A stretch of 64,000 nucleotides of DNA from an uncultured Gemmatimonadales bacterium (lineage in GTDB: Bacteria; Gemmatimonadota; Gemmatimonadetes; Gemmatimonadales; GWC2-71-9): assembly GCA_963833365.1 (NCBI GenBank), contig CAWHXS010000012.1, positions 166,767 to 230,766 on the forward strand, read 5' to 3'. Under the pieces are notes generated by a model. That model saw only the letters and a list, made by a program, of their open reading frames with translations, had not been told where the DNA came from and made no database searches. Position numbers and translations under genes: made by a program. Of this stretch, positions 6,497 through 63,716 are shown piece after piece. Each line of letters begins with the position of its first letter. The first letter of the stretch is position 1.

Positions 6497-6610
6497 GGGT
6501 AGTAGGTGGTGGGTAGTGGGGGGAGAAAACGAAACCCCCTGAGGTTACTCCAGGGGGTGCCATTCGTCAGTCCACTGTTGTTCTCTCCCACCACCCACTA
6601 CCCACTACCC
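6497..6610. repeat. heptamer-arm hairpin (GGGTAGT / CCCACTA family)
   Basis: The left arm GGGTAGTAGGTGGTGGGTAGTGGG (6497-6520) matches the reverse complement of the right arm CCCACCACCCACTACCCACTACCC (6587-6610) at 21/24 positions. The loop contains the rpoD terminator. Confidence 0.85.
6524..6557 (-). terminator. Rho-independent terminator of the sigma-factor gene
   Basis: On the minus strand: CCCCCTG-(9 nt)-CAGGGGG stem-loop (6557 to 6535) followed by TTTCGTTTTCT (6534 to 6524). It lies about 55 nt downstream of the rpoD stop codon. Confidence 0.6.
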
Positions 6611-6611
6611 A

Positions 6612-7513
6612 TTACGCCGCCACCCAGTGCCCTGCCAGCCCCTTCACATCCGGCGACTGGCGCAGCTTCTCGAAGGCGCGTTCGCGGATCTGGCGGATGC
6701 GTTCCCGGGTTACGCCCAGCAGCTCGCCGATCTTCTCCAGCGTCAGACGCCTCGGAGCCTTCCTCGAGCCCGTAGTAGAGGTAGAGGATCTTGCGCTCGC
6801 GTGGAGTCAGGTAGCGCTCGAAGATGCGATCGATGAACTCGCGAGTGAGCCGCGCGTCGGTCTTCTCCTCGATGTCGAATCCTTCGGCGCCCGGCGAAGC
6901 GCTCACCGAGCGTTCCCGCATTCTTGTCGCCCCGCTCCAGGGGAGCGTCAAGCGAAAGCTCCGCCGACGTCATGCGTCTGGCGGAGCGGATATTGTCGAC
7001 CGAGTCGTTCAGTGCCATGGCGATCTCTTCGTCGGTCGGCTCGCGTCCCAGCTCCTGCGACGAGGAAGGTCTCGGCGCGGCGACATCTTGATGAGCGCCG
7101 AGTTCTGGTTGAGCGGGATGCGTACGCTGCGAGTCTGTTCGGCAAGCGCCTTGAGCACCGCTTGGCGCACCCACCAGACCGCGTAGGAGATGAACTTCAC
7201 GCCGTGATCGGGATCGAATTTCCGGACTGCCTTGAGGAGCCCTTCGTTGCCGATCGCCACCAGCTCGGCGAGATCCAGACCGTGGCCCTGATACTTCTTC
7301 ACGTAGGAGATTACGAATCGGAGGTTCGCCGTCACGAGGCGTTCCGCCGACTTTCTCGACATCCCTTTTGCGACTAGCCGGGCCAGCCGTTTCTCCTCGG
7401 CGGGATCGGTGATCATCGGCAATTTTTGAATGTCCTGCAGATACTGGTCGAACGCGCCGGTGGCAACTGGACGAAAGAAGACCTTGCCCCGGCTCTCGTT
7501 GGAGTGACGCCAT
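6612..7513 (-). pseudogene. rpoD: primary sigma-70 factor, short Bacteroidetes/FCB type; at least 4 frameshifts as assembled
   Basis: The protein can be followed across three frames. The N-terminus is MASLQRE (ATG 7513). Next come ...FDQYLQDIQKLPMITDPAEEKRLA...ANLRFVISYVKKYQGHGLDL..EGLLKAVRKFDPDHGVKFISYAVWWVRQAVLKALAEQTRSVRIPLNQ. Then ...ELGREPTDEEIAMALNDSVDNIRSARRMTSAELSLDAPL. Then ...FIDRIFERYLTPRERKILYLYYGLEEG. The end is ...LTLEKIGELLGVTRERIRQIRERAFEKLRQ, with TAA at 6612-6614. Shifts are near 7490, 7070, 6900 and 6755. Confidence 0.8.
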
Positions 7514-7592
7514 AGACTCCCCGAGCGGAAGTGCTGCTGAGTTTTGTTCGGAAGGGAGGCGGCCCAGCGGTGGCCGTCAAAAAAGGTGTGCG

Positions 7593-7621
7593 AATATAGG
7601 ACGCCCTGGAGAGGCGGTCAA
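7593..7621 (-). promoter_or_regulatory. candidate sigma-70-type promoter of rpoD
   Basis: On the minus strand: TTGACC (7621-7616), a 17-nt spacer, TATATT (7598-7593). This is about 80 nt upstream of the ATG at 7513. Confidence 0.45.
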
Positions 7622-7631
7622 GCATTTTTAG

Positions 7632-7806
7632 TTTTCCACATCACAAATCGTTCAGCACCAGACGATTCCAAGTTTTGTCCACCTTTCCACAGCTTTCCAC
7701 AATTGCCGCGATTCAATACAATCTGGTAACTGATTGTCGTACAGTAGGTTACAAGAGGGGGAAAGGTGGAGAGCTGTGGAAGGCGTGTGGTGCGTTGTGT
7801 GAATCA
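7632..7806. promoter_or_regulatory. cluster of DnaA-box-like 9-mers around an AT-richer spacer
   Basis: Forward boxes: TTTTCCACA 7632-7640, TTGTCCACC 7675-7683, CTTTCCACA 7683-7691, CTTTCCACA 7693-7701. Reverse boxes: GGTGGAGAG 7765-7773 (weak), TGTGGAAGG 7775-7783, TGTGAATCA 7798-7806. Confidence 0.5.
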
Positions 7807-9437: not shown

Positions 9438-9453
9438 CCCGATTCCGGGTTCG

Positions 9454-12430: not shown

Positions 12431-12446
12431 GGCGGGGGAAGTTAAT

Positions 12447-12600
12447 AGCCGTCAGGCGTCAGCCGTCAGCCGTCAGCCGTCAGCCGTCAGCCGTCAGCCG
12501 TCAGCTATAAGCCGTAGGCCGAGAGCTGTTAGCTGTTAGCCATTATCCGCGGTACTCGTTTCTAGGTACTCGTTCCTAGGTACTCGGTACTCGGTACTAT
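12447..12600. repeat. 22 consecutive heptamer units in one register (AGCCGTC, AGCTGTT, GTACTCG families)
   Basis: AGCCGTC-type units run from 12447 to 12502. Degenerate AGCNNNN units run from 12503 to 12551. GTACTCG alternating with TTYCTAG runs from 12552 to 12600. The sixA stop (12597-12599) lies in the last unit. Confidence 0.9.
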
Positions 12601-13088: not shown

Positions 13089-13106
13089 TCTGTTGTCCCT
13101 TCTGGA

Positions 13107-13175
13107 GCCATAAGCCTTAAGCCATAAGTGCGTGCGCGCCGGAAAGATTGTGGCTTATGGCCTATGACTTATGGC
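13107..13175. repeat. heptamer-arm hairpin (GCCATAAG / CTTATGG family)
   Basis: GCCATAAGCCTTAAGCCATAAG (13107-13128) pairs with CTTATGGCCTATGACTTATGGC (13154-13175) at 19/22 positions. The loop is 25 nt. Located between the dacB stop and the sixA start. Confidence 0.85.
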
Positions 13176-13185
13176 ACTGAACCTG

Positions 13186-14775
13186 TCACTTCTTCATCTT
13201 CGAGGCCGCTTTCGCAAGTGCAACGACCACGCTGTCAATCTCGGGCAACATCGTCTTCCCGCCCAGCACATGGTGATTCGCCTGCACCGAGAAGGTGTAG
13301 GTCTTGCCGTTGTTCAGCTCGAAATAGCCCGAGAGCGTGTTGACTCCGCTGATGCTGCCCGTCTTGGCCCAGACCTTCCCTTCGAGCGGTGTCGCGACGA
13401 ACCGGCGCAGGAGCGATCCGGTATTGCCGGATTGCGGCAGGCCGGCGACGAATGTCGGGAAATTTGGGTGGCTGCGCATGAAGAGCAGCAGCTTCGTAAA
13501 CGTGAGGGGAGAGACGAAGTTCACGCTCGAGAGACCGGAGCCATCGCTCAGGCTGAACTGGGTTGAGTCCGCTCCGATTGAGTCAATGAGAAAGCGGCGT
13601 TCGACCTCGATGCCTTCCGACCAGGAGCCCGCCTTCCCGAACTGCTTGCCCAGCTCCTTGAGCAGCATTTCGGCGTACCAGTTCTGGCTGGTGTTGAGGA
13701 TCGGGAAGACCCAGTCCCGCAGCGGGCGTGATTTGAGCTCGGCGAGGGGAGGCGCGGCCCGCGCACTGGCATACTTGACCGAGTCGGTCGTCGAACGGGT
13801 GGTCCCCAGGATGCTGATACCCGCCTCGTTCAGCATGCGGCGGAAAGCCCGCGCGGTGAACAGATTCGGATCGGGCATCGCGAAATATTCCGTTCCGCCT
13901 TTGCTGTCGGCCGCGACGTTGCCCTGGGCCCAGAGCGTCATCGAGTCGGGGATCCGGAAGAAATCGATGGTGTCGTCGCTGCCGGAGGCGCCGGTTTGAG
14001 TCCGGTTCTCCAGCGTGACGTCTCCGACATCCGGCGTCATGCTGATCGAAGCGGGGGCGGATTCCGCTCGTCCCGGCTCCCAGGCGAGGTCCACACTGTT
14101 GTCATTGAAGCCCAGCCCCGAGACCGGCGCCGCGTACCACCAGCTCAGGTCATAGCTCTCCCAGCCCGGGTGGATCAGCTCGCCGTCGAACCAGCTTCCG
14201 TCGCCGATGAGATCTCCATGCACCACCTTGAGCCCCCGTGCGCTGAGCGACTCCGCCAACGCGCGGTATGGAGCGAAGGGATCGCTATCGCAGACTCCGG
14301 GGAGGGTGCTGTCCGTCGCGTAGCAGCGAATCCCCGAGAACGGCGATCCACGGCCGTACAGAATGAGGTCTCCGTCCAGGGTGCCGCGGGTCATCGGCCC
14401 GCTCCCGTACACGCTGGTCGTGACCGTCCAATCGGGAGCCAACCGGGCCGAACCCACGGCACTCACAACCAGCTTGGTATTGCTGGCCGGGACAAAGAGC
14501 CGGTCGGCGTTTCTCCCGTAGAGCACCTTGCCCTTGTCATCCACCAGGGCAACGCCCCAGAAGTGCCGGTTGAATGGCGGCGTGTCGAGCAGGGCATCGA
14601 TGCGTTTGGTTTCCGACTTGGACAGCTGGCCAGAAAGGGTGGGCACGACGGACAGGGCGATCAGGACGGACAGGGCGGTCGCGACCAGCAATCTCTGGAT
14701 TGCGCTGTCCGCCCCGTCCGCCCTGTCCGCCTTGTCCGCCTCATTCAAACGCCAACCGTGGATCCGCTTTAGCAT
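13186..14775 (-). CDS. dacB: D-alanyl-D-alanine carboxypeptidase/endopeptidase (PBP4, peptidase S13)
   Basis: ORF 13186..15042 trimmed to Met90 (MLKRIHG...). Signal peptide LLVATALSVLIALSVVPTLSG. SxxK motif in PASNTKLV. Full-length S13 similarity. Confidence 0.85.
   Translation of the reverse strand: MLKRIHGWRLNEADKADRADGADSAIQRLLVATALSVLIALSVVPTLSGQLSKSETKRIDALLDTPPFNRHFWGVALVDDKGKVLYGRNADRLFVPASNTKLVVSAVGSARLAPDWTVTTSVYGSGPMTRGTLDGDLILYGRGSPFSGIRCYATDSTLPGVCDSDPFAPYRALAESLSARGLKVVHGDLIGDGSWFDGELIHPGWESYDLSWWYAAPVSGLGFNDNSVDLAWEPGRAESAPASISMTPDVGDVTLENRTQTGASGSDDTIDFFRIPDSMTLWAQGNVAADSKGGTEYFAMPDPNLFTARAFRRMLNEAGISILGTTRSTTDSVKYASARAAPPLAELKSRPLRDWVFPILNTSQNWYAEMLLKELGKQFGKAGSWSEGIEVERRFLIDSIGADSTQFSLSDGSGLSSVNFVSPLTFTKLLLFMRSHPNFPTFVAGLPQSGNTGSLLRRFVATPLEGKVWAKTGSISGVNTLSGYFELNNGKTYTFSVQANHHVLGGKTMLPEIDSVVVALAKAASKMKK
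14705..14740. repeat. 9-nt tandem repeat GTCCGCCNN x4 inside the dacB 5' coding region
   Basis: Units at 14707-14715, 14716-14724, 14725-14733 and 14734-14740. On the coding strand they encode (A-D-X)4, as in EADKADRADGADSA. Confidence 0.8.
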
Positions 14776-22698: not shown

Positions 22699-24046
22699 AT
22701 GGCTGATTCCGTCCTGCTGATTGATGACGACGCCGACGTGCTGCGCACGGTCGGGACTTACTTCGAGCGCGTGGGCTGGGAAGTCGCGCGCGAACTGGAC
22801 GGCGAGGCCGGTCTCGCCGCCTACGACCGGCTGCGGCCGGAGGTCGTGATCCTCGACCTGCATCTCCCCGGCCTCGACGGAATGGAGGTGCTGGCGCGGC
22901 TTCGCGAGAGGAATGCCGCGGTCATCCTGCTCACCGGGCAGGGCGACGTCCCCACCGCGGTGAAGGCCATGCAGCTTGGCGCGGAGAACTTCCTCATCAA
23001 GCCGATGGACATGGAGCACCTCACGGCCGCGGCCACCAGGGTTTCGGACAAGGTGCGGCTCCGCCGGCTCAACGAGATGCTGCTGCTCCGCACCTCGCCG
23101 GGAGAAGGACTCGAATCGCTGGGCGACTCACCGGAGATGAAAGAGCTGACTCGGCAGATCGGTCTCGTGGCCCTGAGCGATCGCACTGCTGTGCTGCTCA
23201 AAGGCGAGAGCGGGGTCGGGAAGGCCTGGGTGGGGCGGATGCTGCACCAGCTGAGTCCCCGGGCCTCGGGGCCCTTCACCGAAGTTTCCTGCTGGGGACG
23301 CAGCTCCGCCGGACTGGACGCCGAGCTCTTCGGGGTCGAGCGGGCGACGCCGGCGGACGTGCGGGAACGCCGCCAGGGTCTGATGGAAATCTCCTCGGGT
23401 GGCACGATTCTCTTCGAAGAGATCGGAGACCTCCCGGCCGAGTTGCAGCCCAAATTGCAGCGGGTTCTGGAGACCCGGACCTTCCGCCGGGTGGGCGGAA
23501 CCCGCGACGTGGCGACTGATGTGCGCGATTCTCGCGGCGACCAGCCGCGACCTCGCGGCGGAAGTCGAGGCGGGGAAGTTCCGGGAAGATCTCTACTACC
23601 GCCTGAGCGTGATGCCGGTGACGCTGCCGCCGCTGCGCGACCGGGCACGGGAAGACCGGCTCACTCTGATGTCGGCGCTCCTCAACGAGCTGCAGGGCAA
23701 GGTTTCCGGGGTTCCCGCGGCACTCTCGCCCGAGGCGCTCGAGCGCATGCTGGGCCACTCCTGGCCGGGGAACGTCCGCGAGATGCGTAACGTGCTGGAG
23801 CGCGCGGTGATCCTCGCCCGGGGCCAGTCTCAGGTCGGCGTTGAGCATCTGCCCGGCGAATTCCGCGCCCGGCCCGGCCCGGGCGACCGTCGCCACACTC
23901 CGCAGACCCTGGACGATCTCGAACGGGTGCACATCGAGCGCACGCTGCGGCACCACGGCGGCAATCGAACCCGGGCGGCCCAGGAACTCGGCATCTCGCG
24001 GGCGACGCTGATCAATAAGATTAAGCGGTACTCCATTCAGGTTTGA
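22699..24046 (+). pseudogene. sigma-54-dependent Fis-family response regulator (NtrC-like); frameshift near 23520
   Basis: The receiver domain (LLIDDDADV...DLHLPGLDG) and AAA+ domain (GESGVGK...GGTILFEEIGDL) are in ORF 22699... The continuation ILAATSRDL..GKFREDLYYRL..WPGNVREMRN and the Fis HTH are in ORF 23399..24046. Confidence 0.85.
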
Positions 24047-24049
24047 GGG

Positions 24050-24133
24050 CTGTCAGCCGTCAGCTGTCAGCCATCAGTTATTAGCTTTTAGCTATTAGCT
24101 TTAGCTTACTAGCTAACGGCTGACGGCTGACGG
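24050..24133. repeat. heptamer-arm hairpin (CCGTCAG / CTGACGG family) with a YTWTTAG centre
   Basis: Four CNGTCAG units (24050-24077), about five YTNTTAG units (24078-24112), and three CTRACGG units (24113-24133). It starts 4 nt after the regulator stop codon. Confidence 0.85.
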
Positions 24134-24153
24134 CTTCGCATAAGGAGACCACC

Positions 24154-27180: not shown

Positions 27181-27582
27181 ATGGAGCTGATCGGGATCGG
27201 CATCGACCTGGTGGATATCGCGCGGGTGGAGCGAATGCTGGAGCGCCACGGCGATCGGGTACTCACCCGATTTCTGACTGATGGGCGAGCGGGAGTACGT
27301 GACCGGCCGGTTCCGTCCTGCGCATGCACATCGCGGCGCGCATGGCCGCGAAGGAAGCGGCGTACAAGGCGCTGCAGTCGCTGCCCGATGCGCGTGCCGT
27401 CTCGCTGGCAGGATCTCGAGGTCGAGCGGGCCCACGACGGGCGCCCGTCGCTCCGGCTTTGGGCCTCGCTGCTGAACTGGCGGCCAAACACGGACCCTTT
27501 CGCTATCGAGCTGTCGCTGAGTCACTCGGATCGGACGGCGGGGGCGGTAGCGGTGCTGGTGCGGGGGAAGCGTGAGAGGTGA
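27181..27582 (+). pseudogene. acpS: holo-[acyl-carrier-protein] synthase; 2 frameshifts as assembled
   Basis: MELIGIGIDLVDIARVERMLERHGDRVLTRFLT comes first. HIAARMAAKEAAYKAL is in the frame of 27324... Then ...WQDLEVERAHDGRPSL...FAIELSLSHSDRTAGAVAVLV. Confidence 0.8.
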
Positions 27583-27599
27583 GAGGTAAGAAGTGAGAG
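27572..27599. repeat. heptamer array GTGAGAG x4
   Basis: GTGAGAG GTGAGAG GTAAGAA GTGAGAG. The acpS TGA (27580-27582) lies across two units. The reverse-complement family occurs at 45239-45266. Confidence 0.8.
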
Positions 27600-27666
27600 G
27601 GCGGACGAGTGATCGCGCTCAGATGATGCAGGCCAAGAATCAATTAGGCGGACGCGACGGGCACTA

Positions 27667-29145: not shown

Positions 29146-31110
29146 ATGCTTCTCATTGCCGCGGGATCCCTCGCGATCTCGCTTCTCGTCTCGCCCGGAC
29201 CCGATCCGACTCAGGGTGAGGATCGTACTCCGGTCGTTCGGCGCATCGCCGCCACTACCGCACTCGCCGCCCAGGAGTATCGCGAAGGCGTGAAGGACGG
29301 AAAGGTCATCGCGCGAGCCGAGGTCGAAGAGGCCGAGCTGTTTCTCACCGAGGCCCGGCGCACCGCGGCCGGGTTGCCGCTCGATGTCAGCAAGTACCAC
29401 CGGTCGCACGAACTCGATCGGATTCTCGGCATGGTACGGCAGACCGCCGAGCCCGATTCGATCGACATCCGGGTACGCCAACTGACCGCGACACTCAGCC
29501 AGAAACTCGGCGTGTCGCTGGAGGAAATTCCCCCGCCCAGGTTCCGACGCTCGCCCGCGGTGCCGAGCTCTATCAGACCAATTGCGCCAGCTGTCATGGG
29601 ATGACGTGGACGCGGCGATGGACCGGCCGGCGTGTCACTCAATCCGCCCGCGCCCGACCTCACCGACTTCCGCACGCTCACCGATCGTTCTCCGCTCGAT
29701 TTCTATCGTCGCAGTCACCATCGGGGTCGCGGGCACCGCGATGCCCGCCTTCGAGACCCGGCTCTACGGCCGGAGGACCGGTGGGCCGCGGCGGTGTACG
29801 CCACGTTGCTCCGGTTGCCGGCCCCGCGAGGCGAAGTGCCCAATCGCTCTACGCGAGTTCGCCTCGACCGGTCGGATGACCGATAGCCGAGATCGCCGCG
29901 GCACTGGATCCAGATGCCGACCACTGTCACCTGCTACTCGCTCCCGGATCGCAGCGGTGCGCGGCTTTCAGGGCAACATCGCTACGGCCGATGCCAGCGG
30001 CGATGGTGTTCGCCCGGGTCCGGAGCCGAGCTCGATTCGGCGCAGATGCTGGCGGGGCAGGGGCAGGGTGCCGCGGCCAGCGGAACCGCGTTCGACGCGT
30101 ACATGACGTTTGAGCAGGTGGAGAACTGCGGTGCGGGTGAAGAACGCCGCACTGGCCGACCAGCTCGAGGCGGGCTTCGCCGCTTATCGCACTCGGGCCG
30201 CCGGCGGCGCCACCGCAGCAGGAGCTGCAAGGGGATTCAGGCCCACCTGCTGGCCGACCTCGAGAACGCCGAGCGGGTCATCGGAGACCAGCTGTCCCCG
30301 TTCAACCTGTTCCTCCAGTCGCTGATCATCCTGCTGCGCGAAGGGCTCGAGGCGATCCTGGTGGTCGGCGCGCTGATGGCGTTCCTGGTGAAGACCGGGC
30401 AACGTCCAGCGCAAGCGCGACATCCACGTCGGCGTCGGCGCCGCGGTCGTGGCCAGCCTGCTCACCGCCGTCGCGCTGGAGACCATCTTCCAGATCTCGC
30501 CGGCCCGGCGCGAGGCGCTGGAAGGCGTGACGATGATGGTCGCGACGGCGATGCTGTTCTACGTGAGCTACTGGCTCTTGTCGAAGATGGAAGTGGCCAA
30601 GTGGAATCGCTTCGTGCGGGGCCGGGTGCAGGACGCGGTGACCAGCGGCTCGGCGCTGGCCCTGGCGTCGGTGGCATTCCTCGCCGTCTATCGCGAAGGC
30701 TTCGAGACGGTGCTGTTCTACAAGGCGCTGTTCCTGACCGGTGGCGGCATCGCGCATTCCCATCGTGCTCGGCATGCTGGTCGGCTCGGTCGTCGCTGGT
30801 GGCGTGGTCTATGTCGCGATCAACCGTACGGCGTGAAGCATTCCGCTCAAGCCGTTCTTCGGCTTCACCAGCGCCTTCCTCTACTACATGGCGTTCGTCT
30901 TTGCGGGGAAGGGAATCGCGGAGCTGCAGGAGGGCGGTCTGGTCGGCACTACGATGCGTGCCGTGGGCGCCGCGCATTCCGGCACTGGGCATCTATCCCA
31001 CGGTCGAATCGCTGGCGCTTCAGGGAGTGCTGCTCGCTGTTGCTGGCCGGTCGGACTGGTCTGGACCTTCGTGATCGAGCCGCGCCGGCTCAAGGTCGAC
31101 CAGCGTCGAT
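29146..31110 (+). pseudogene. cytochrome c / FTR1-family iron permease fusion; at least 8 frameshifts, 3' end uncertain
   Basis: Signal peptide MLLIAAGSLAISLL. Haem motif in ELYQTNCASCHG...GTAMPAF. Two FTR1 REXXE motifs: LLREGLEAILVVGALMAF and AVYREGFETVLFYKALF. The pieces are spread over all three frames. Confidence 0.7.
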
Positions 31111-31303
31111 GGTGCCGGACGCCGCGAGGCCGCCCGGCGCAGCCCGCCATTCCGATCGAGCCGTCGCGCGTGGATCTCGACATGCATACGCTCGCTCGAG
31201 CGCATGGGTGCCGATCTGGCGGAGCTGCGGGCGGAGGTCGAGCGGCTGAAGCAGCTGCTGGCTCGCGCGATCGTCGCGGCGGTAGGCGTCGCGGCCACGT
31301 CGT

Positions 31304-37961: not shown

Positions 37962-38076
37962 TGGTCGATGGTCGATGGTCAGTGGTCTTGGGTCTTGGGT
38001 CTTGGGTCTTGAGACTTTATTCCTCGCCCTTCTCCCTTCTCCTGTCTCCCCACTCCCCCACTCCCTACTCCCTACT
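37940..38076. repeat. composite heptamer array (GGTCNNT x6, GGTCTTG x4, CCCTTCT/CCCCACT/CCCTACT x7)
   Basis: The 7-nt register is nearly continuous from 37940 to 38076. The thiG stop (38065-38067) and its last codons lie inside the CCCTACT units. The rsmB TTG start (37961) lies inside the GGTCAAT unit. Confidence 0.85.
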
Positions 38077-38889: not shown

Positions 38890-39095
38890 CCTCCACCAAC
38901 GAAGTGCACCAACTCGACCGAATCACCATTCTGGAGTCCGGTATCTGCAAGGCGCGGGCGGCGAACGATCTCCCGATTGAGCTCCACCACGACCATGCGC
39001 GCGTCCAGATCGAGCTGGTGCAGAAGATCGGCGAGGGTTGCCGGGCCTTCGATTGCTCGGGGTTCGCCGTTCACCGTTAGCGTCAGTGTCATCAT
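38886..39095 (-). CDS. thiS: sulfur carrier protein ThiS
   Basis: MMTLTLTVNGEPRAIEGPATLADLL...GDSVELVHFVGGG with a C-terminal GG. It lies in frame with, and without a stop after, the thiE reading frame. Confidence 0.75.
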   Translation of the reverse strand: MMTLTLTVNGEPRAIEGPATLADLLHQLDLDARMVVVELNREIVRRPRLADTGLQNGDSVELVHFVGGG

Positions 39096-39723
39096 GTCTG
39101 CCTCGAGCCAGGGCGCCAGCAGCGCCAGCGCTGCCGCGGCTGGATCCCGCACATGCCATGCGGCGGTGATGGCGGCGATCCCATACGCGCCCGCCTCTCG
39201 CAGCTGCCGGCTCCGCTCGGGAGTCACTCCGCCGATCGCGATGACGGGCCGGCCGAGCCTTGCCACTTCAGTCACCAGTCCCGGTCCGGCCGCGGGTCGG
39301 TCGGGATGGCTGGTGGTGCTGTAGATCGGGCCCACGATCAGAAAATCCGCTCCTGCTTCGAGCGCCGCCCGCGCTTCCTCGGGTGAGTGCACCGAGCTTC
39401 CAATCCAACCCGACCAACTGCCCAGCCGCCAGACGCGCATCGCCCGGGAGCAGATCTCCCGCCCCAAGCTGCACACCCTGGGCGCCCAGCGCCGCGGCAA
39501 TATCGGGCCGTCCGTTCACGAACACCGCCGCCTCCGGTGGCCGGGCCAGCGACAGGAAGCGTCGTACCGTCGCCGTCAGCTTCTCGCCTGTGGCGGTGCG
39601 GTCACGCGCGTGCAGCGCCACGACCGATCCGGTCGAGGCCAGCGCGGCGGCCCGCACGCCCAGATCTTCCAGTTCCAGCACGGCCCGATCGGTTATCGCG
39701 TGCAAGCGAGGCAACGGCCTCAT
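39096..39723 (-). pseudogene. thiE: thiamine-phosphate synthase; frameshift near 39420; reads through into thiS
   Basis: The ATG at 39723 overlaps the fmt TGA (ATGA). MRPLPRLHAITDRAVL...VFVNGRPDIAAALGAQGVQLG comes first. Then ...IGSSVHSPEEARAALEAGADFLIVGPIYSTTSHP...IAIGGV is in the frame of ORF 38886..39500. Confidence 0.75.
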
Positions 39724-41179: not shown

Positions 41180-42843
<1,664 letters not shown>

Positions 42844-42853
<10 letters not shown>

Positions 42854-43872
42854 AACATTGCATCTCCGTACGAGTAGAACCGGTATCTCTCCGCAACGCC
42901 GTGCCGATACGCGGCCATGGTGAGATCATAGCCCGCGAAGGCGGAGACCAGCATCAACAGAGTTGAACGGGGGAGGTGGAAGTTGGTTAGCAGGTGATCA
43001 ACTACCCTGAATTGAAAACCCGGTGTGATCATAAGCTGGGTTTCCGCGCTGCCCGACCGCACCAGGCCACCTTCCGCACCAGCGCTTTCGAGCGCTCTCA
43101 CCACCGTGGTACCGACCGCCCAGACGCTGCCCTTCGTTTTGCGAACCTCCGCGATCGCGGTCGCCGTTGCCTCGGGGATGTCAAACCGCTCCGGATGCAT
43201 GTGGTGCCGAGTGAGATCCTCGACTTCGACCGGCTTGAAGGTCCCGGGGCCGACTTCGAGATCGAGTCGCGCGATGCGCACGTCCCGCTGCTCAAGCTCC
43301 TTGAGGATCTCGGCGGTGAAGTGCAGACCCGCGGTCGGCGCGGCGACACTCCCTTCCTGCTCCGCGTATACCGTCTGATATCTGATCTCGTCGTTCGAAT
43401 CGGGGTCCCGCTCGATGTAGGGAGGGAGCGGCAGCCGGCCCAGGCGTCGAATCGCTTCTTCCGCAGTAGCCCCGATGAATCGGATCTCGCGCTGGCCATC
43501 CTCCAACTCCGCGACGGTTTCCACCTCGATGTCCGGTGCCAGACGGATCCGCTTGCCAGGCTTCATCGCCGAACCGGGCCGGCCGATCGCGATCCATGCA
43601 CCCTCGGTACCCGGATGCAGCAACAACACCTCCGCGGGCGCGCCGCTCGGCCGAGTCCCCAGAAACCGCGCGTGCCGGACCCGAGTGCTATTCAGGACCA
43701 GCAGGTCTCCGGGAGGGATGAGCTGGGTCAGATCGCCGAAGCTTCGGTCTTCCAGCTCGGCATAATACCGCCTAACTACGAGCAGCCGGCTGGTTCCGCG
43801 CTCGGCGATGGGATACTGCGCGATGAGCTCGGGTGGGAGGGAGTAGTCGAAGTCGGAGGTGTGGTAGGGCAC
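42844..43872 (-). CDS. queA: S-adenosylmethionine:tRNA ribosyltransferase-isomerase
   Basis: ORF 42844..43956 trimmed to the GTG at 43872 (MPYHTSDFDYSLPPELIAQYP, compare E. coli MRVTDFSFELPESLIAHYP). The upstream part of the ORF is read from a repeat arm. Confidence 0.85.
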
Positions 43873-43886: not shown

Positions 43887-43977
43887 AGTAGTGGGTAGTG
43901 GGTTGTGGGTTGTGGGGAATGCGATCGACGCTTCCGGTTTGACTACTCCCCACCACCCACTACCCACAACCCACAAC
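43887..43977. repeat. heptamer-arm hairpin (GGTAGTG/GGTTGTG vs CCACTAC/CCACAAC)
   Basis: Left arm 43887-43917, 25-nt loop, right arm 43943-43977. About 6 of 7 positions are complementary per unit. Located between the ruvB stop and the queA start. Confidence 0.85.
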
Positions 43978-43988
43978 CCGCCCCGCTC

Positions 43989-45011
43989 CTACTCAAACAT
44001 CGACGGCTGTGAAGCAGGCATCTTCATCCCGAACCGCCGGTAGGCATGTGCGGTTGCGACCCGGCCCCGTGCGGTGCGTTCGAGGAAACCCTGCTGGATC
44101 AGGTACGGCTCGTAGACTTCCTCCAGGGTCCCGCTGTCTTCGCCCACCGCCACGGCAACCGTGTTGAGACCTACCGGCCCGCCGCTGAACTTCTCGATGA
44201 TGGTCTTGAGTATGCGCGCGTCCATGTCGTCGAGACCGAACTCATCCACGTTGAGCCGGCTCAGGGCGTCGCGGGCAACCTGTGCCGTGATGATTCCGTT
44301 AGCCCGCACCTGGGCATAGTCCCGCACCCGGCGCAACAGGCGGTTGGCCACGCGCGGTGTCCCGCGGCTTCGCTTCGCCAGCTCTTCGGCTCCCTCTTGC
44401 TCGATCGGAACATTGAGGATCTGCGCCGATCTCTCGACGATGGTCTTGAGCTCATCGGCGGGATAGAAATTCAGCCGTTCCACCATTCCGAAGCGGGCTC
44501 GCATGGGTGGAGTCAGCAGACCAAACCGGGTCGTGGCGCCGATCAGGGTAAAGCGCTCGATCGCCATCGGAATGGTCTGGGCGTGGGGTCCGTCGGCGAT
44601 GCGCACCTCGACCCGATAGTCCTCCATCGCGGGGTAGAGGAACTCCTCGAGTACGGGACGGAGGCGATGGATCTCGTCGATGAAGAGCACGTCGCCCGGC
44701 TGCAGGGTGGTCAGCAGGCTCACCAGATCGCCTGGCTTTTCGAGAACCGGCCCCGACGTGGTCCTGAGCTGAACGCCCATCTCGCGGGCGAGCAGTGTCG
44801 CCAGCGTCGTCTTACCGAGTCCCGGCGGACCGAAGAAGAGGGTGTGATCGAGCGGCTCTCCCCGGGCCTTCGCGGCATCGATCGCGATCTGGAGCGAGGC
44901 CTTCACCTGCACCTGCCCCACGAACTCGTCGAGCCGAGAGGGCCGGAGCGCCGCTTCGGCGCCGGTCTCCTCGGGGAGGACGTCGGGGGTGGTGATCTCC
45001 AGGCGGCTCAT
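43989..45011 (-). CDS. ruvB: Holliday junction branch migration DNA helicase RuvB
   Basis: GPPGLGKTT Walker A, DEIHRL, full-length RuvB. Start taken at Met9 (ATG 45011), which shares one base with the TGA of the upstream small ORF. The GTG at 45035 is an alternative start. Confidence 0.9.
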
Positions 45012-45187
45012 CAATCGATCGATCTGGCGTCCCACCGCACCGGCCGGTCACCAGGCTGGACCATGTGCTTCACGTGGCAGTGAATGCAACGGTCTTCCGC
45101 TTCCCGGGTCCCGGAGGCAAGCAGCAGGCGATTGGTGCTCCCGCATCGGGTGCAGAGCCATTCGGCGGTTGTAGCTGCGACAGTCAT
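45011..45187 (-). CDS. small zinc-ribbon-like protein (58 aa)
   Basis: ATG at 45187. [41 protein letters not shown]... has two CxxC pairs. Its TGA overlaps the ruvB ATG (TGATG). No clear RBS. Below the ORF-track cut-off. Confidence 0.45.
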
Positions 45188-45238: not shown

Positions 45239-45266
45239 CTTCTCACTTCTTACTTCTCACATCTCA
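45239..45266. repeat. heptamer array CTTCTCA x4 (complement of the GTGAGAG family)
   Basis: CTTCTCA CTTCTTA CTTCTCA CATCTCA, lying 8 nt beyond the ruvA stop codon. Confidence 0.8.
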
Positions 45267-45273
45267 CGCTTTT

Positions 45274-47218: not shown

Positions 47219-47324
47219 GGCCATAAGCCTTAAACCACACGCATTAAGCCCGTCCCCGACCACGAAAGAGGACCAGAAAGCGTGAATCGCTTACGCTTTA
47301 TGGCTGACGGCTGATGGCTGACGG
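47219..47324. repeat. heptamer-type imperfect hairpin plus a CTGACGG array
   Basis: CCATAAG CCTTAAA CCACACG CATTAAG (47221-47248) on one side. CTTACG CTTTATGG CTGACGG CTGATGG CTGACGG (47290-47324) on the other. Confidence 0.7.
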
Positions 47325-47373
47325 CTTCCCGGCCATTGACCCCCTAGGGGCCCACCACTAATCTCCGCCGCCT

Positions 47374-58922: not shown

Positions 58923-58979
58923 GTGCTTGCCGGATCGGTGGAGTTCGGGGTAACGTAGCGAGCCGGTCAGACGCAGAGA

Positions 58980-59007
58980 AGCCGTTAGCCGTTAGCCGGT
59001 AGCCGTC
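58980..59007. repeat. heptamer array AGCCGTN x4
   Basis: AGCCGTT AGCCGTT AGCCGGT AGCCGTC, in the divergent intergenic region between the patatin gene and the aminotransferase gene. Confidence 0.8.
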
Positions 59008-59050
59008 AGCGAACTAAGTCCCCAGCGCTCGGTGAGGAAGGACTTCAGGA

Positions 59051-60250: not shown

Positions 60251-60258
60251 GGTCGCCT

Positions 60259-61803
60259 ATGCCTCAATCTCTCGCTGACGTCCTGAAGTCTGGCTACGGC
60301 TTCACCGATGCATCCATCGTCTTCGGTGCGGCTCTCGATGGCGCTGCGCTGATTCCGGAGCCGAAAGTTCGCGTCCCTCTCGCCATGACCAATCGTCATG
60401 GTCTCATCGCGGGCGCGACCGGGACCGGCAAGACCAAGACGCTCCAACTTCTCACCGAGCAATTCTCCGCCGCCGGCGTCCCGGTATTTGTCGCCGATAT
60501 CAAGGGCGATCTCTCGGGTCTCGCCATGCCCGGTGAGTCGAATGACCGCGTCGCGCAGCGAGCGAAGGAGACCGGATGGGCCTGGAAGGCGGGGAGCGTG
60601 CCGGTCGAATTCGTGAGCCTGACCGGCAAGCTGGGTGTTCAGCTCCGCGCTACCGTGAGTGACTTCGGCCCCCTGCTTCTCGCGAAGGTGCTGGGACTCA
60701 ACGACACCCAGGCCAGCGTGCTCACCCTGGTCGTCAAGTACTGCGACGACAACCAGCTCCCGCTCCTCGATTTCGAAGACCTGCGGGCGGTGCTGCAGTT
60801 CCTGACTTCAGATGCCGGGAAGGGAGCACTCGCGGGGTATGGCGGAATGTCGGAGGCCACGGTCGGCGTGCTGCTCCGGAAGATGATCGAGCTCGAGGCT
60901 CAGGGTGCACAGGCCTTTTTCGGCGAGCCGCAATTCGATGTCCACGACCTGCTGGCCAGGACCTCCGATGGTCGCGGTGTCGTCACCTGTCTCGAGCTGG
61001 CCGACGCGCAGGACAAGCCGCGGCTCTTCTCCACCTTCATGATGTGGCTGCTGGCCGACCTGTATCACAACCTGCCCGAAGCAGGAGATCTCGACCGCCC
61101 CAAGCTCGTGTTCTTCTTCGACGAGGCGCACCTCCTCTTCCAGGATGCTCCCAAGCCCTTCCTTGAGCAGGTCGAGCAAGTGGTGCGGCTGATTCGCTCG
61201 AAAGGCGTCGGCGTGTACTTCGTCACCCAGACCCCCAAGGACGTACCGCCGGACGTTCTGGCCCAACTGAGCAACCGGGTGCAGCATGCCCTCCGGGCCC
61301 ACACCCCGGATGACGAGCGTCTGCTGGCCGCCACAGCCCGCACCTACCCCAAGGCTCCTTATCTCGATCTGGAGGAGGTGCTCACCTCGCTCGGCATCGG
61401 AGAGGCGGTCGTCACCGTACTCGATCCGCGCGGGGTTCCCACTCCCGTCATGCCGACTCGATTGATTCCTCCCGCGTCCCGGATGGCACCTCTCACACCG
61501 GATGAGCTTCAAGCCGACATCCGGCAGTCGGATCTCGTGAAGGCCTACGGCACCACGATCGATCGGGAGAGCGCCCGGGAGATCCTCGCCTCGCGGCTGG
61601 CCAAGACCGCGCCTGAAGCGCCGGCACCGGAGGCCAAACCCGCGGGAAAGGTTGGAAAGTCGGTCGGGGCGGTTGTCGGGGGAGCGGTGCTCGGAGCCCT
61701 GGGTACTACCATCGCGAGAACGGTGGGGAGGGAACTGGTACGCGGTGTGTTTGGTATGCTGGGCGCCCGGTCGCCCCGATCGACGAGACGGACCCGGTGG
61801 TAG
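60259..61803 (+). CDS. HerA-like helicase domain / DUF853 (YjgR-type) P-loop ATPase
   Basis: ORF 60028..61803 trimmed to Met78. NRHGLIAGATGTGKTKTLQ Walker A, KLVFFFDEAHLLF Walker B, and a basic/hydrophobic C-terminal tail. Confidence 0.8.
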   Translation: MPQSLADVLKSGYGFTDASIVFGAALDGAALIPEPKVRVPLAMTNRHGLIAGATGTGKTKTLQLLTEQFSAAGVPVFVADIKGDLSGLAMPGESNDRVAQRAKETGWAWKAGSVPVEFVSLTGKLGVQLRATVSDFGPLLLAKVLGLNDTQASVLTLVVKYCDDNQLPLLDFEDLRAVLQFLTSDAGKGALAGYGGMSEATVGVLLRKMIELEAQGAQAFFGEPQFDVHDLLARTSDGRGVVTCLELADAQDKPRLFSTFMMWLLADLYHNLPEAGDLDRPKLVFFFDEAHLLFQDAPKPFLEQVEQVVRLIRSKGVGVYFVTQTPKDVPPDVLAQLSNRVQHALRAHTPDDERLLAATARTYPKAPYLDLEEVLTSLGIGEAVVTVLDPRGVPTPVMPTRLIPPASRMAPLTPDELQADIRQSDLVKAYGTTIDRESAREILASRLAKTAPEAPAPEAKPAGKVGKSVGAVVGGAVLGALGTTIARTVGRELVRGVFGMLGARSPRSTRRTRW

Positions 61804-61809
61804 AGAAGC

Positions 61810-61919
61810 GGGAGACGGGAGACGGGAGACGGGAGACGGGAACAGCAACGACCCTCTGGTCCTTTCAGTCTCCCTCGTCTCCCGTCTCCCGTCTCCCGTC
61901 TCGTCTCCGTCTCCCGTCT
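61810..61919. repeat. heptamer-arm hairpin (GGGAGAC / GTCTCCC) between convergent genes
   Basis: Four GGGAGAC units (61810-61840), a 27-nt loop, then about seven GTCTCCC units (61868-61919). It begins 7 nt after the DUF853 stop and ends on the mscL stop codon. Confidence 0.9.
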
Positions 61920-62202
61920 ACTTCTTCGCCACCATCTCCTCCTTCAACACCTTCTTGGCAAACCAGTACACCAGAAAGGCGACGACAAGGAAGTTGAGTA
62001 GCGCCGCCAGGACTGACCCGATGGCGAAGGGACCAAGCATCCACTTCTGCCAGTCTCCGCCGGGCAAAACCATCCCGACGATGGGCATCAGGAGCCCGTC
62101 CACGATCGCCTTCACCAGCTCCCCGGCTTTCCCTCCAATGATCACCGCGATGGCCAGGCCGATGACTCCGTACTCGTTGAGGAACCGCGTGAAGTCGCTC
62201 AT
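61918..62202 (-). CDS. mscL: large-conductance mechanosensitive channel
   Basis: MSDFTRFLNEYGVIGLAIAVIIGGKAGELVKAIVDGLLMP...; 94 aa. Confidence 0.85.
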   Translation of the reverse strand: MSDFTRFLNEYGVIGLAIAVIIGGKAGELVKAIVDGLLMPIVGMVLPGGDWQKWMLGPFAIGSVLAALLNFLVVAFLVYWFAKKVLKEEMVAKK

Positions 62203-62242
62203 CGTGGAGATCTCCGGAAACGGGGGAACGGCTGGAAGGAGT

Positions 62243-63509
62243 CTAGGATTCCGCTACCAGTAGCGCGTAGTTCTTCTTGCCCTTCTGCAACATTGCATGT
62301 CCGCCGGCCAGCAGGTCTGCTTCGCCCAGAATGCGGTCCACGTCACTCACCGGTTCAGCGTTGAGGGAGAATCCCTTCCCCTGAATGCCCCGGCGAGCGT
62401 CGCTCTTGGAGCTCGCCAGCCCGGCCTTGACCAGCAAATCGATCAACGAAAGTCCCTCCACCTCGGCTCGCGCCATCCGCAGAGTCGGAATCTCATCGGC
62501 CAGGGTCTGGAACACCGTGGCCTCGGCTGCCCGGAGATCCTGTCCACCAAAGAGCAGGCGGCTCGCGGCGACCACCCGCCTGGCCGTGTCCGCCCCGTGC
62601 ACCCGGCTGGTCAATTCCTCGGCGAGGAGCCGATGAGCCGCGCGCTGGCCCGGATCGCTCGCCTGCTGGTCCATCACGCGACGGATCTCCTCGAGCGACA
62701 GGAAGGTGAAGAACTTGAGGCACCGCTCCAGGTCCCTGTCGTCGGTGTTGAGCCAGAATTGGTAGAACTTGTACGGGCTCGTCTTCGCCAGCATCGAGCC
62801 AGACGTTCTCGTCCTCGCTCTTCCCGAACTTGGCTCCTGACGCCGTGGTGATGAGCGGGAAGACCAGGGCGTGCGCACTCTTGGCCTCCCGCCGCCCGAT
62901 CAGCTCGGTGCCCGCGGTGATGTTGCCCCACTGGTCGCTACCACCCATCTGCAGCTCGCAGCCATCGGTGCGGAAGAGGTGCCAGAAGTCGTACGCCTGG
63001 GTCAGCATGTAGCTGAATTCGGTGAACGAGATTCCCGTCTCCATCCGGCTCTTCACCGATTCCTTCTGCAGCATATAGCTGATGGTGAAGTGCTTCCCGG
63101 TGTCGCGGAGGAAATCCAGGAGCCGGATCGGTCGCAGCCAGTCGGCATTGTTCCTCATCCTCGCCGCGTTGGCGCCCTCGAAGGTGAGAAACCGCTCCAG
63201 CTGCGTCCTGATCGCCTGGGCGTTGGCATCGATGCGCTCGACCGAGAGGATCGGGCGCTCTCCCCGCTTCCCGCTGGGATCTCCCACCATGCCGGTGCCG
63301 CCGCCAATGACCACGATGGGCGTTCCTCCGGTCCGCTGGAGCCAGGCCAATCCCATCACCGGAACCAGATTTCCGACATGCAGCGAATCCGCTGTCGGAT
63401 CGAACCCGACGTATCCCGTAATCGGCCCCTGCTGCAATCGGTCGGGCAGACCCGGGGTCGCGTCGTGAACGAATCCACGCTCGCTGAGAAGGCTGAAAAG
63501 GTCAGGCAT
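62243..63509 (-). pseudogene. tyrS: tyrosine--tRNA ligase; frameshift near 62795
   Basis: [17 protein letters not shown] (HIGH-type) and KFGKS (KMSKS-type) are in ORF 62493..63509. ...[16 protein letters not shown]... and the S4 domain are in ORF 62243..62878. Confidence 0.85.
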
Positions 63510-63558
63510 GGGCGCGGAATGTTAGGGGTGGCCTATTGGTCGGGCAAGAATAGACAGT

Positions 63559-63716
63559 TGGTGATGGGTAGTGGGTAGTGGGTAGTGGGGTGTAGGGAAA
63601 GCTTCGTGGCGCTCCCGTCTCCCGTCTCCCGTCTCCCGTCTCCCGTCTCCCGTCTCCCATCTCCCGTCTCACTCTCCCATCCACCCCACTCCCCACCACC
63701 TACTCCCCACTCCCTG
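63559..63716. repeat. composite heptamer array (GGGTAGT x3, CTCCCGT x8, CCCCACT-type x6)
   Basis: GGGTAGT units at 63566-63586. An unbroken 7-nt register runs from 63612 to 63716 (15 units). Located upstream of the tyrS start (63509, minus strand) and the PBP1A start (63737, plus strand). Confidence 0.9.

Follow-up and report, generated by a model that had tools for sequence, protein, structure and literature searches.

Heptanucleotide arrays in the window

The stretch of DNA analysed in this study, referred to as the window, comprises 64 kb of contig CAWHXS010000012.1 from the metagenome-assembled genome (MAG) of an uncultured Gemmatimonadales bacterium; related loci were fetched from other assemblies for comparison. 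Scattered through the window, at the ends of genes such as those for a sigma-70 factor, SixA, ThiG, QueA and MscL, are tandem arrays of 7-nt units, many of which stand as two arms facing each other. The arrays are real, specific to a period of seven, intergenic, inverted and spacer-filling, and their unit number and sequence vary between strains and between species. They had been noticed in an earlier reading of the sequence letters, referred to below as the original prediction.

Using Tandem Repeats Finder (TRF), about 35 rows with period 7 or 14 were obtained at the predicted coordinates. These match essentially all of the predicted arrays, the run at 47219-47248 being weak and degenerate (GCCATAA/GCCTTAA), and the eight unit families that had been read by eye are real. 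Three arrays had been missed, namely 12524-12540 (AGCTGTT), 24078-24114 (TTAGCTT) and 38027-38049 (CCCTTCT). A simple detector of our own reported 11 period-7 arrays under strict and 20 under lenient settings. The 20 lenient arrays fall into 14 loci (A to N), which are listed here with their gene context and, where folded as RNA, with the predicted free energy and z score.

Locus A, 6497-6615: arms GGTAGTG (6497-6520) and CCCACTA (6587-6615), between the sigma-70 stop (6612) and a Lon-N-domain gene; -70.4 kcal/mol, z -5.1
Locus B, 12447-12598: direct mosaic of AGCCGTC x8.4 (12447-12505), AGCTGTT x2.4 (12524-12540) and GGTACTC-type x7 (12550-12598); on the minus strand, the first TAGTACC unit opens with the TAG stop of sixA (12597-12599)
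Locus C, 13106-13175: arms AGCCATA (13106-13128) and TGGCTTA (13151-13175), between the peptidase S13 stop and the sixA start; -32 kcal/mol, z -5.1
Locus D, 24049-24135: arms GTCAGCC (24049-24077) and GCTGACG (24112-24135) enclosing a TTAGCTT array (24078-24114), beginning 2-3 nt past the TGA stop (24044-24046) of an NtrC-like gene; -52.2 kcal/mol, z -7.8
Locus E, 27572-27600, plus strand: single array GTGAGAG x4.1, including the stop of an acpS-like open reading frame (ORF) (27580-27582)
Locus F, 37956-38081: mosaic of GGTCAAT/GGTCGAT (37956-37987), GGTCTTG x4 (37984-38011) and CCCTTCT/CCCTACT (38027-38081), occupying the whole thiG-rsmB spacer, the thiG frame closing on a TAG within the array; no hairpin, z +0.6
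Locus G, 42090-42179, minus strand: arms GGTCGAT and ATCGACC (coding strand), in frame within tgt (TRF 42098-42125 and 42146-42164); -52.6 kcal/mol, z -6.7
Locus H, 42731-42854: arms AGTACCT/AGTACCG (42731-42787) and TACTAGG (42828-42854), occupying the 127-nt queA-tgt spacer, with the queA TAG stop within the stem and the tgt start codon 14 nt off; -58.7 kcal/mol, z -4.8
Locus I, 43888-43979: arms GTAGTGG/GTTGTGG (43888-43916) and CCCACAA/CCCACTA (43949-43979), occupying the ruvB-queA spacer; -59 kcal/mol, z -6.1
Locus J, 45239-45267, minus strand: single array GTGAGAA/GTAAGAA (minus-strand reading), beginning 6 nt past the ruvA stop
Locus K, 47219-47326: degenerate GCCATAA run (47219-47248) and GGCTGAC x3.6 (47300-47326), in the divergent spacer between yebC and a plus-strand gene; fold weak, z -2.2
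Locus L, 58980-59010: single array AGCCGTT x4.4, in the divergent spacer between a patatin-like and an aminotransferase gene
Locus M, 61809-61919: arms CGGGAGA x4.7 (61809-61841) and CGTCTCC x6.7 (61876-61919), between the convergent HerA-like gene (stop 61801-61803) and mscL (stop 61918-61920); -78 kcal/mol, z -8.2
Locus N, 63565-63716: TGGGTAG (63565-63589) and CCCCACT-type (63684-63714) as outer arms around a CTCCCGT x9.7 array (63612-63678), in the divergent spacer between trpS and a plus-strand gene; -52.7 kcal/mol, z -3.2

With our detector, each of the other periods from 4 to 12 yielded at most one array in the window, and the mean number of period-7 arrays expected by chance, from 30 dinucleotide-preserving shuffles, was 0.07. 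The autocorrelation at a lag of seven was 0.353 in non-coding and 0.264 in coding sequence, against a background of about 0.275. As this excess vanishes once the 14 loci are masked, the listed loci carry the entire signal. On our own gene map, 17 of the 20 arrays lie in non-coding sequence, which makes up 9.7 % of the total (P = 5e-15); positions 24.1-31.4 kb were excluded from the coding/non-coding statistics because gene calling, based on GC content at third codon positions and a codon model, is unreliable there. The array loci account for about 18 % of the non-coding bases, at a density of ~0.3 arrays per kb.

Array lengths cluster around four units. Near-perfect runs are found, such as (AGCCGTC)8 at 12447-12505 and (CGGGAGA)4.7 facing (CGTCTCC)6.7 at 61809-61919, and the longest single array has 9.7 units (CTCCCGT, 63612-63678); the length of up to 22 units given in the original prediction fits only the composite locus at 63565-63716. 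The same unit is dispersed over several loci, with seven pairs of loci in the window sharing a unit class against 0.27 expected, and self-BLAST linked A with I, A with N, B with D, B with H, B with K, E with J, F with G and M with N. Head-to-tail 7-nt units in at least about three copies, occurring above chance, biased towards non-coding sequence and dispersed in this manner, are the marks of heptanucleotide arrays of the kind described as long simple sequence repeats (LSSR) or short tandemly repeated repetitive (STRR) sequences.

Location of the arrays relative to genes

Nine of the 14 loci follow a stop codon within a string of genes in the same direction, one lies between convergent genes, three are in divergent 5' spacers and one is intragenic; loci D and E are counted as same-direction though their downstream gene falls in the poorly called 24.1-31.4 kb. 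The expectation that the arrays sit at gene boundaries does not hold as a rule, as 42090-42179 is within the tgt frame; the three loci in divergent 5' spacers are away from gene ends. The expected contact with stop codons was found: arrays start 0-11 nt after the upstream stop codon or include it, the genes concerned being those for sigma-70, sixA, peptidase S13, the NtrC-like protein, acpS, thiG, queA, ruvB, ruvA, the HerA-like protein and mscL. At loci C, H and I the array ends 14-17 nt before the next start codon.

The genes named in the original prediction were recovered by Pfam, with ends at 6612 for Sigma70_r4 (in frame 6612-6806), 12597 for His_Phos_1 (sixA-like), 24046 for the C-terminus of the NtrC-like protein, 38065 for ThiG, 42844 for QueA, 61803 for the HerA-like protein (former DUF853) and 61918 for MscL, and with a weak ACPS match ending at 27582. 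One label had to be changed, as the gene part called nusB is the N-terminal domain of rsmB. No common function was found among the genes flanking the array loci, and searches of the window with Rfam at the gathering threshold and with ARAGORN revealed no structured RNA family, tRNA or tmRNA.

The best matches of QueA and TGT are from Gemmatimonadales MAGs, with 68 % identity in species representatives and up to 91 % in metagenome contigs, in agreement with the earlier guess of a high-GC genome of the Fibrobacterota-Chlorobiota-Bacteroidota (FCB) type. The source organism is a soil bacterium of the Gemmatimonadales, which belong to the FCB group. Exact-protein look-ups with the 370-aa QueA start, TGT, the HerA-like protein and TrpS gave no match.

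Hairpins formed by inverted arrays

At eight of the 14 loci (A, C, D, G, H, I, M and N) the arrays are inverted pairs, the units of the two arms being reverse complementary. All eight fold as RNA into stems of ~20-35 bp, with free energies of -32 to -78 kcal/mol and z scores of -3.2 to -8.2. For seven of them (z -4.8 to -8.2) none of 200 shuffled sequences was as stable, and for locus N (z -3.2) one of 200 was. The ability of complementary arms to form hairpins, as well as the lack of conservation of the loop sequences, had been predicted correctly. The mosaic locus F and locus L fold no better than shuffles.

Inverted layout was also seen on a larger scale. Within 1.9 Mb (the window and the fetched loci), arrays of the same period-7 unit less than 150 nt apart were inverted in 23 cases and direct in one, which indicates that the inverted layout is a property of the arrays and not the outcome of chance. 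For period 8 the corresponding numbers were nine and zero, and periods 6, 9 and 12 gave 0-1. The stems begin between 6 nt before and 10 nt after stop codons. Convergent pairs of same-unit arrays able to form a stem-loop, at less than 50 bp from a stop codon or overlapping it, are characteristic of the arrays of Xanthomonas, and both traits were observed here.

None of the array stems is followed by a T tail, and on scanning the window with terminator and promoter consensus patterns, terminator-like sites were found at the level of shuffled sequence, as were promoter-like sites. Intrinsic (Rho-independent) terminators, defined by a GC-rich stem of 5-20 bp with a short loop and a T/U run behind it, were rejected for the array stems on the basis of the missing T tails and the terminator scan. 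Within the array loci, the sole strong terminator is a small hairpin distinct from the array stem, in the loop of locus A. This canonical terminator-like hairpin (6534-6558, minus strand) has a 9-bp GC-rich stem followed by TTCGTTTTCT as T tail, so that the repeat arms flank what is apparently the native sigma-70 terminator.

An in-frame hairpin array inside tgt

Locus G is located inside the 404-aa frame of TGT, and the Pfam TGT profile spans the whole ORF. The array encodes an insertion of roughly 27 aa in a loop which has 35 residues in the window as against 4 in solved TGT structures. The units have no stop triplet on the coding strand; many intergenic units have one. Among ~80 Gemmatimonadales tgt genes this loop is between 13 and 56 residues long. 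A fold at z < -3 was obtained for 59 % of the 41 long loops, compared with 3 % of the short loops, and the relatedness of the lineages inflates the significance of such tgt statistics.

The extra DNA in the loop is nearly always an inverted pair of tandem arrays, with sequences that are unrelated between lineages. The period is seven in the window, L083/L084, L094, L096, L108, L143 and L033, eight in most other lineages, and nine in L101 and L103; further lineages with a hairpin in the tgt loop are L086, L088-L090, L104, L116, L120 and L136. In the fetched loci, 41 period-8 arrays are in the tgt loop and 27 elsewhere, as against 11 and 95, respectively, for period 7. In tgt, therefore, the hairpin architecture is kept while the sequence turns over.

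The outermost tgt units (GGTCGTG...CACGACC) are common to the window and L083 and the inner units differ, a sign of change in place and not of re-insertion. Of 38 cases, 26 show better folding of the tgt hairpin on the antisense than on the sense strand (P = 0.003, only indicative, as the lineages are related). Such an asymmetry speaks against selection for a stable mRNA hairpin here and in favour of upkeep of arm complementarity at the level of DNA. Selection for a stable sense-strand RNA hairpin in tgt was rejected, since the asymmetry runs the opposite way.

Reproduction of the arrays in independent assemblies

Five short-read contigs, assembled from other samples with other assemblers and retrieved by exact-protein look-up, cover parts of the array loci. 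L081 (99.95 % identical) aligns without gaps across hairpin C and part of locus B, L082 (99.8 %) aligns without gaps over hairpin C and L166 (99.6 %) over hairpin I, array J is unchanged in L164 (99.8 %), and L165 (99.06 %) covers mosaic F with one unit fewer. As independent contigs at 99.06-99.95 % identity reproduce loci B (in part), C, F, I and J, the arrays are not assembly artefacts. This is the check on independent assemblies that the original prediction had called for.

Short-read contigs of the species (L081, L082 and two Logan contigs) stop at or within arrays, those of L081 and L082 terminating within the locus B arrays, and L082 ends in a chimeric join of two AGTACC arrays from different loci. 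Such breaks and joins are expected because genuine multi-copy repeats act in this manner on a de Bruijn graph.

Against L165 the window shows six 1-nt gaps in 2.9 kb, and against L081, L164 and L166 none; judging from these alignments, single-base indel errors are apparently present in the window. Several window genes are spread over more than one frame, namely sigma-70 regions 3/4 (6612-7513), the NtrC-like gene (22699-24046), an FTR1 permease gene (29914-31249) and rsmB (36621-39498), which is intact in the short-read contig L165 (L165:1621-2865). Single-base assembly indels are the likely explanation for the split genes.

Turnover between strains and sister species

Strain L165 (99 %) has three GGTCTTG (CAAGACC) units at 37984-38011 where the window has four, a difference of exactly one unit, so the suggested check for unit-number polymorphism between strains had a positive outcome. 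The remaining loci compared show no change at 99.6-99.95 % identity. In L163 (GCA_035472975.1, 97.9 %) array J is different and the locus K arrays are absent; in L084, likewise, the locus K arrays are absent (at 92 % identity) and locus J differs. In L167 (95 %) the array of locus L is replaced by a single CCGGCT beside the same flanking TCTCTG, which looks like a local seed or a relic.

In the sister species L083 and L084 (~91 %), with 8-10 kb of conserved synteny, the flanks align cleanly, whereas at the arrays the copy number, and often the unit, is different. Units at three orthologous sites are as follows.

queA-tgt spacer (H): AGTACCT in the window, AGTACCT in L084, GGAGTAA in L083
ruvB-queA spacer (I): GGGTTGT in the window, GGGAGTA-type in L084, not covered in L083
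thiG stop (F): GGGAGTA in the window, not covered in L084, GTGAGAC in L083

At loci G, H and I of the sister species, the species-specific unit is present on both arms. At the thiG stop the protein itself is affected, the C-terminus of ThiG being GML* in L083 and GMLGSRE* in the window. Unit number and unit sequence are thus variable among close relatives, a further trait of LSSR/STRR-type arrays.

The closest relatives, L083, L084, L086, L088 and L094, have array densities of 0.3-0.9 per kb, and in most of the more distant Gemmatimonadota arrays are absent or rare. Arrays of 7-nt units with other sequences, often as inverted pairs, were found at single loci of L071 (Holophagae), L047 (Geobacter), L049 (Betaproteobacteria) and L068 (Pirellulales). 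The distribution of the arrays across lineages is patchy, as it is for long simple sequence repeats (SSRs) generally.

Additional features of the region

Other repeats of similar build were encountered. The Holophagae contig L071 has 66 % GC, yet its heptamer units are AT-rich. Intergenic inverted pairs of 8-nt arrays exist in some Gemmatimonadales including L103 and L025 (GACGCAAG / GCGTCCTT in L103). In the window, 9-nt inverted arrays at 37468-37525 and 37551-37570 (of CGGACGGGG and TCCCGCCTC types) encode the rsmB linker from the NusB-like to the methyltransferase domain. Similar 9-nt inverted arrays at 14647-14678 and 14705-14740 lie within the N-terminal region of the peptidase S13 (PBP4-like) gene, where one arm encodes EADKADRADGADS and the other a hydrophobic stretch, ATALSVLIALSVV, resembling the core of a signal peptide.

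A zinc-ribbon-like ORF of 58 aa with two CxxC motifs (45011-45187, minus strand) is located between ruvA and ruvB, downstream of locus J. It is ~97 % conserved in the sister species L084, its stop overlaps the ruvB start region, and it was missed by the gene caller.

Self-BLAST also gave one unrelated 24-nt inverted repeat, which led to a gene for a Y1 (HUH) transposase of 158 aa (31410-31886, minus strand; region 31302-32047), assigned to the IS200/IS605 family by NCBIfam. The gene is flanked by four GTCGCGAC-N4-GTCGCG palindromes and by 42-nt inverted arms, a layout that resembles that of a REP-associated (repetitive extragenic palindrome) transposase.

Relationship to known repeats

In cyanobacteria, heptamer arrays have been on record since 1990; reports from Xanthomonas, Geobacter and Beggiatoaceae came later. 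Geobacter metallireducens has 49 loci of four-heptanucleotide elements, and 'Maribeggiatoa' (Beggiatoaceae) has 169 TAACTGA sets, mostly just upstream of start codons. The arrays of the window are similarly dispersed and short, often with ~4 copies. In those genomes, by contrast, there is one unit per family genome-wide, mostly in direct layout, and the Beggiatoaceae repeats are at ribosome-binding positions rather than at stops.

A close parallel is found in Xanthomonas, where a genome has ~185 GGGAATC heptamer arrays in 5 Mb, with 70-75 inverted pairs in convergent layout (Rehm et al. 2015, PMC4692102). They are mostly within 50 bp of a stop or overlap it, have a mode of ~4 units, and vary in length and sequence from one close relative to the next but stay single or inverted, with no link to mobile elements (PMC4692102). 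Non-coding bias, inverted pairs, proximity to stops, the mode of ~4 units and variable length are common to both. Xanthomonas, however, has one dominant G-rich unit, whereas at least eight families at ~0.3 arrays per kb are present here, most of whose units cannot form a G-quadruplex (G4); the phylum is different, and no in-frame hairpin in an enzyme has been reported for Xanthomonas.

In cyanobacteria, 7-bp STRR arrays form hairpins between hupS and hupL, for which a role in transcript stability or translational coupling was suggested (PMC2670836). As in the window, units of 7 bp in several families are intergenic, and some form hairpins between genes of one operon. Unlike the present arrays, they come from filamentous cyanobacteria with AT-richer genomes, and the GGGGAYT arrays of Nostoc include only few inverted pairs (PMC4692102), as against eight of 14 loci here. 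The Xanthomonas pairs at stops and the hupS-hupL hairpins mean that the architecture is not new, contrary to what the original prediction had supposed.

Long SSRs provide the wider frame. According to the summary in PMC4679880, heptanucleotides are the most abundant long SSR in most genomes rich in 5-11 nt repeats (Mrazek 2007), and polymerase slippage with a footprint of roughly 7 nt was proposed for them (Mrazek, Guo and Shah 2007). Heptamer dominance and patchy phylogenetic distribution, as given there, are shared by our arrays. That summary names Burkholderia, cyanobacteria, Actinobacteria and Xanthomonas; as far as it goes, Gemmatimonadota are not covered and the inverted-pair layout is not mentioned.

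Several classes of palindromic element share features with the arrays. Like REP sequences, bacterial interspersed mosaic elements (BIME) and REPINs (REP doublets forming hairpins), they are extragenic, near gene 3' ends and in part double-armed, and a Y1 transposase gene with palindromes is present in the window. REP, BIME and REPIN elements have effects on mRNA stability and, when near stop codons, on translation. REPs, however, are palindromes of 20-40 nt that share a conserved consensus and are tagged by GTAG or CGTC, whereas the arms here are tandem 7-mers that lack a common consensus and are not palindromic singly. The REP/REPIN class was rejected on these grounds, and because only units are common to the loci, loops are unique, and no cognate REP-associated tyrosine transposase (RAYT) flanked by the same repeat was found. 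Miniature inverted-repeat transposable elements (MITE) were set aside as there is no similarity between loci outside the arrays and orthologous sites show growth in place. The arrays were not classified as CRISPR either, their units being of 7 nt and directly adjacent, as against repeats of 24-48 nt with unique spacers of similar length. Rickettsia palindromic elements (RPE) are reportedly inserted in frame in conserved genes, adding a peptide in a tolerated loop. Those elements, 100-150 bp long and conserved in sequence, occur as dispersed copies; what is inserted in tgt, in contrast, is a tandem-repeat hairpin with a different sequence in every lineage.

The kind of repeat is thus already known; new aspects are the phylum in which it occurs, its density, the number of unit families within a single genome and the in-frame tgt hairpin recurring across the order. 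On searching the literature, no description of heptamer repeats in Gemmatimonadota was found, subscription journals being mostly outside the search, so that absence is unproven.

Origin and possible roles of the arrays

We favour, with a probability of roughly 0.58, the explanation that these are heptanucleotide SSRs of the LSSR/STRR kind, driven by slippage and provided with quasi-palindromic arms, which fill the space left by selection. Replication slippage would gain and lose whole 7-nt units, and point-mutated unit variants would spread within an array. Two facing arrays of the same unit would constitute a quasi-palindrome, the complementarity of which may be kept by copying between the arms, either through template switching on the hairpin or through gene conversion between inverted repeats. 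A stem built from repeats could pair in many registers, leading to more stalling and slippage. Purifying selection would confine the arrays to spacers, up to or over the stop codon and to ~15 nt from the next start; intragenic survival, as in tgt, would be possible only in tolerant protein loops, with a stop-free unit and a total length that is a multiple of three. Transcripts would carry very stable stem-loops within 10 nt of stops, which by analogy with REP elements may slow terminating ribosomes and block 3'-exonucleases, as a side effect and not as the cause. Slippage and arm-to-arm templating as the molecular mechanism, and likewise all RNA-level effects, are what we infer.

The evidence for this explanation lies in the period specificity, the intergenic restriction, the one-unit difference between strains and the gain or loss of arrays at loci K and L at 95-98 % identity. 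Further points in its favour are the species-specific units found on both arms at loci G, H and I, the signs of change in place in tgt, the excess of inverted over direct pairs, the antisense bias of the tgt fold, the stop-free units inside tgt, the position of the stems at stop codons, and the literature on heptanucleotide SSRs and Xanthomonas arrays. Among the functions listed in the original prediction, the slippage-prone element agrees with the one-unit strain difference and with the speed at which arrays turn over from one sister species to another. Simple arithmetic accounts for the contact with stop codons. Since seven is coprime to three, an array shifts the reading frame, and three units (21 nt) are enough for a stop-containing unit to terminate every frame. 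The native stop, together with a few C-terminal residues that can be spared, can therefore be replaced by array sequence, as seen in ThiG (GMLGSRE*) and in the TAG stops of sixA and queA, which are the initial bases of TAGTACC units.

Some observations weigh against this explanation. Local and independent seeding does not predict seven unit-sharing pairs of loci against 0.27 expected, nor the set of units shared with sister species; such recurrence would have to come from units passing between loci, from a mutational 'attractor' or from selection acting on unit sequence. The clustering near four units, seen even for units unable to form G4, is not an obvious prediction of free slippage. At locus I the order of variant units on one arm does not mirror that on the other, so that arm-to-arm copying there was either not recent or out of register. 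The model gives no account of the period of seven (eight in most tgt loops), and the lineages in the sense/antisense test are not independent.

It is also conceivable that the arrays are selected RNA elements, i.e. intercistronic or 3' stem-loops which protect upstream mRNA against 3'-exonucleases, set operon ratios or control translation termination and re-initiation, with slippage as the source of variation only. The base of the stem would, in that case, bring the stop codon and the next start codon together. REP stem-loops are said to stabilise upstream mRNA and, within ~15 nt of a stop, to reduce translation. Several features point in this direction: the stems are strong and at most 10 nt from the stop in all six hairpins that follow a gene, the hairpin architecture is held at orthologous sites despite sequence turnover, and in four of five intergenic hairpins folding is slightly better for the sense than for the antisense strand. 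Similar roles were suggested for the cyanobacterial STRR hairpins (PMC2670836). For the hairpin loci an RNA function is plausible; but about half of the loci (B, E, F, J and L) are not hairpins, three are in divergent 5' spacers, the sense strand gives the less stable tgt hairpin, the two arms can differ greatly in length in relatives (3 vs 10 units at locus H of L084), and arrays are gained and lost at 95-98 % identity with flanking genes unchanged. As a general account we therefore consider RNA function doubtful. The narrower idea that the hairpins are intrinsic terminators of this lineage, with long stems and no U tract, is very improbable. Their place directly after stop codons, the position of locus M between convergent genes and the scarcity of canonical terminators in the window would suit it; yet, besides the lack of T tails and a terminator-like signal at shuffle level, hairpins H and I are inside the conserved ruvB-queA-tgt string at ~15 nt from the next start, too close for a promoter to fit in, one hairpin is within tgt, locus A has its canonical terminator in the loop, and L021 and L009, with queA-tgt spacers of 3 to 8 nt, manage without a hairpin. 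With stems lacking a T tail, terminator-like sites at shuffle level and several hairpins filling spacers of the conserved ruvA-ruvB-queA-tgt string, the earlier suggestion of a terminator helper is not supported.

Copying in trans of non-autonomous mobile elements (REPIN, MITE or RPE-like), for instance by the Y1 (HUH) transposase at 31410-31886, would account for the same units at several loci and for a shared unit set that is differently placed in sister species. The double-arm layout resembles REPINs, the in-frame palindromic tgt insertion resembles Rickettsia palindromic elements, and the Y1 gene in the window is flanked by palindromes. No conserved element, terminal inverted repeats or target-site duplication was detected, however; self-BLAST shares units only, loops are unique, and that of locus A holds the apparent native terminator. 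The shared outer tgt units and the seed at locus L indicate growth in place, and the Xanthomonas arrays are likewise without mobile-element association (PMC4692102). The palindrome of the transposase is unrelated to the heptamer units and nearly confined to the transposase gene, and the protein scores as IS200/IS605, with 26.6 bits against a cut-off of 80 in the REP-associated transposase model (REP_Tyr_transpos). On these two counts the Y1 enzyme was rejected as the driver, and mobility as such has a small probability. A still weaker candidate is a role in forming G-quadruplexes (GGGNNNN units) or in offering many sites to a binding protein. The criterion for a predicted G4 (at least four G3 tracts, 1-7 nt apart) picks out loci A, F, I, M and N, which hold 9-10 of the 14 canonical G4 motifs of the window, and the clustering at ~4 units recalls Xanthomonas, with its four G-tracts and G4 folding in vitro (PMC4692102); recurrence of units between loci would suit binding sites. 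As only five of 14 loci qualify, G4 was rejected as a general explanation. The other nine loci have no G3 run in the unit and show the same length mode, a G-rich arm can pair with its C-rich partner in competition with the quadruplex, as raised for Xanthomonas (PMC4692102), at least eight unrelated unit families in 64 kb with changing orthologous units are unlike a single sequence-specific binder, and the flanking genes have no common function. That the arrays are artefacts of assembly or sequencing has a negligible probability: probable single-base indels (the six 1-nt gaps against L165 and the frame-split genes) and the tendency of short-read contigs to break at arrays could raise the suspicion, but five independent contigs reproduce loci B (part), C, F, I and J, and sister species and many other MAGs carry arrays at the same sites. 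The mobile-element, G4/binding-site, terminator and artefact explanations are each contradicted by at least one direct test.

Beyond slippage-driven SSRs, a bolder proposal would be that the hairpins of 7-8 nt units are the product of a dedicated, lineage-specific enzyme, which acts on hairpins, writes units onto both arms and spreads a small set of units. They would then represent a new class of self-renewing element defined by structure, and the tgt hairpin might be kept across Gemmatimonadales (~40 lineages, period 7, 8 or 9, TGT down to ~53 % identity to that of the window), although its sequence has turned over completely, since the structure itself is maintained or used. We regard this proposal as unlikely.

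Implications

This lineage is an unusually dense case with many unit families, and with relatives at 99.8 %, 99 %, 98 %, 95 % and 91 % identity, gain, loss, unit turnover and joint change of the two arms can be traced site by site. In practice, the arrays fragment short-read assemblies, and gene callers will be misled at stop codons. The arrays also create new protein sequence in conserved enzymes, as in tgt, and the 9-mer hairpins do likewise in rsmB and in the apparent signal peptide of the peptidase. The in-frame hairpin of tgt amounts to a natural experiment, in which maintenance of a hairpin at the level of DNA can be set against function at the level of RNA.

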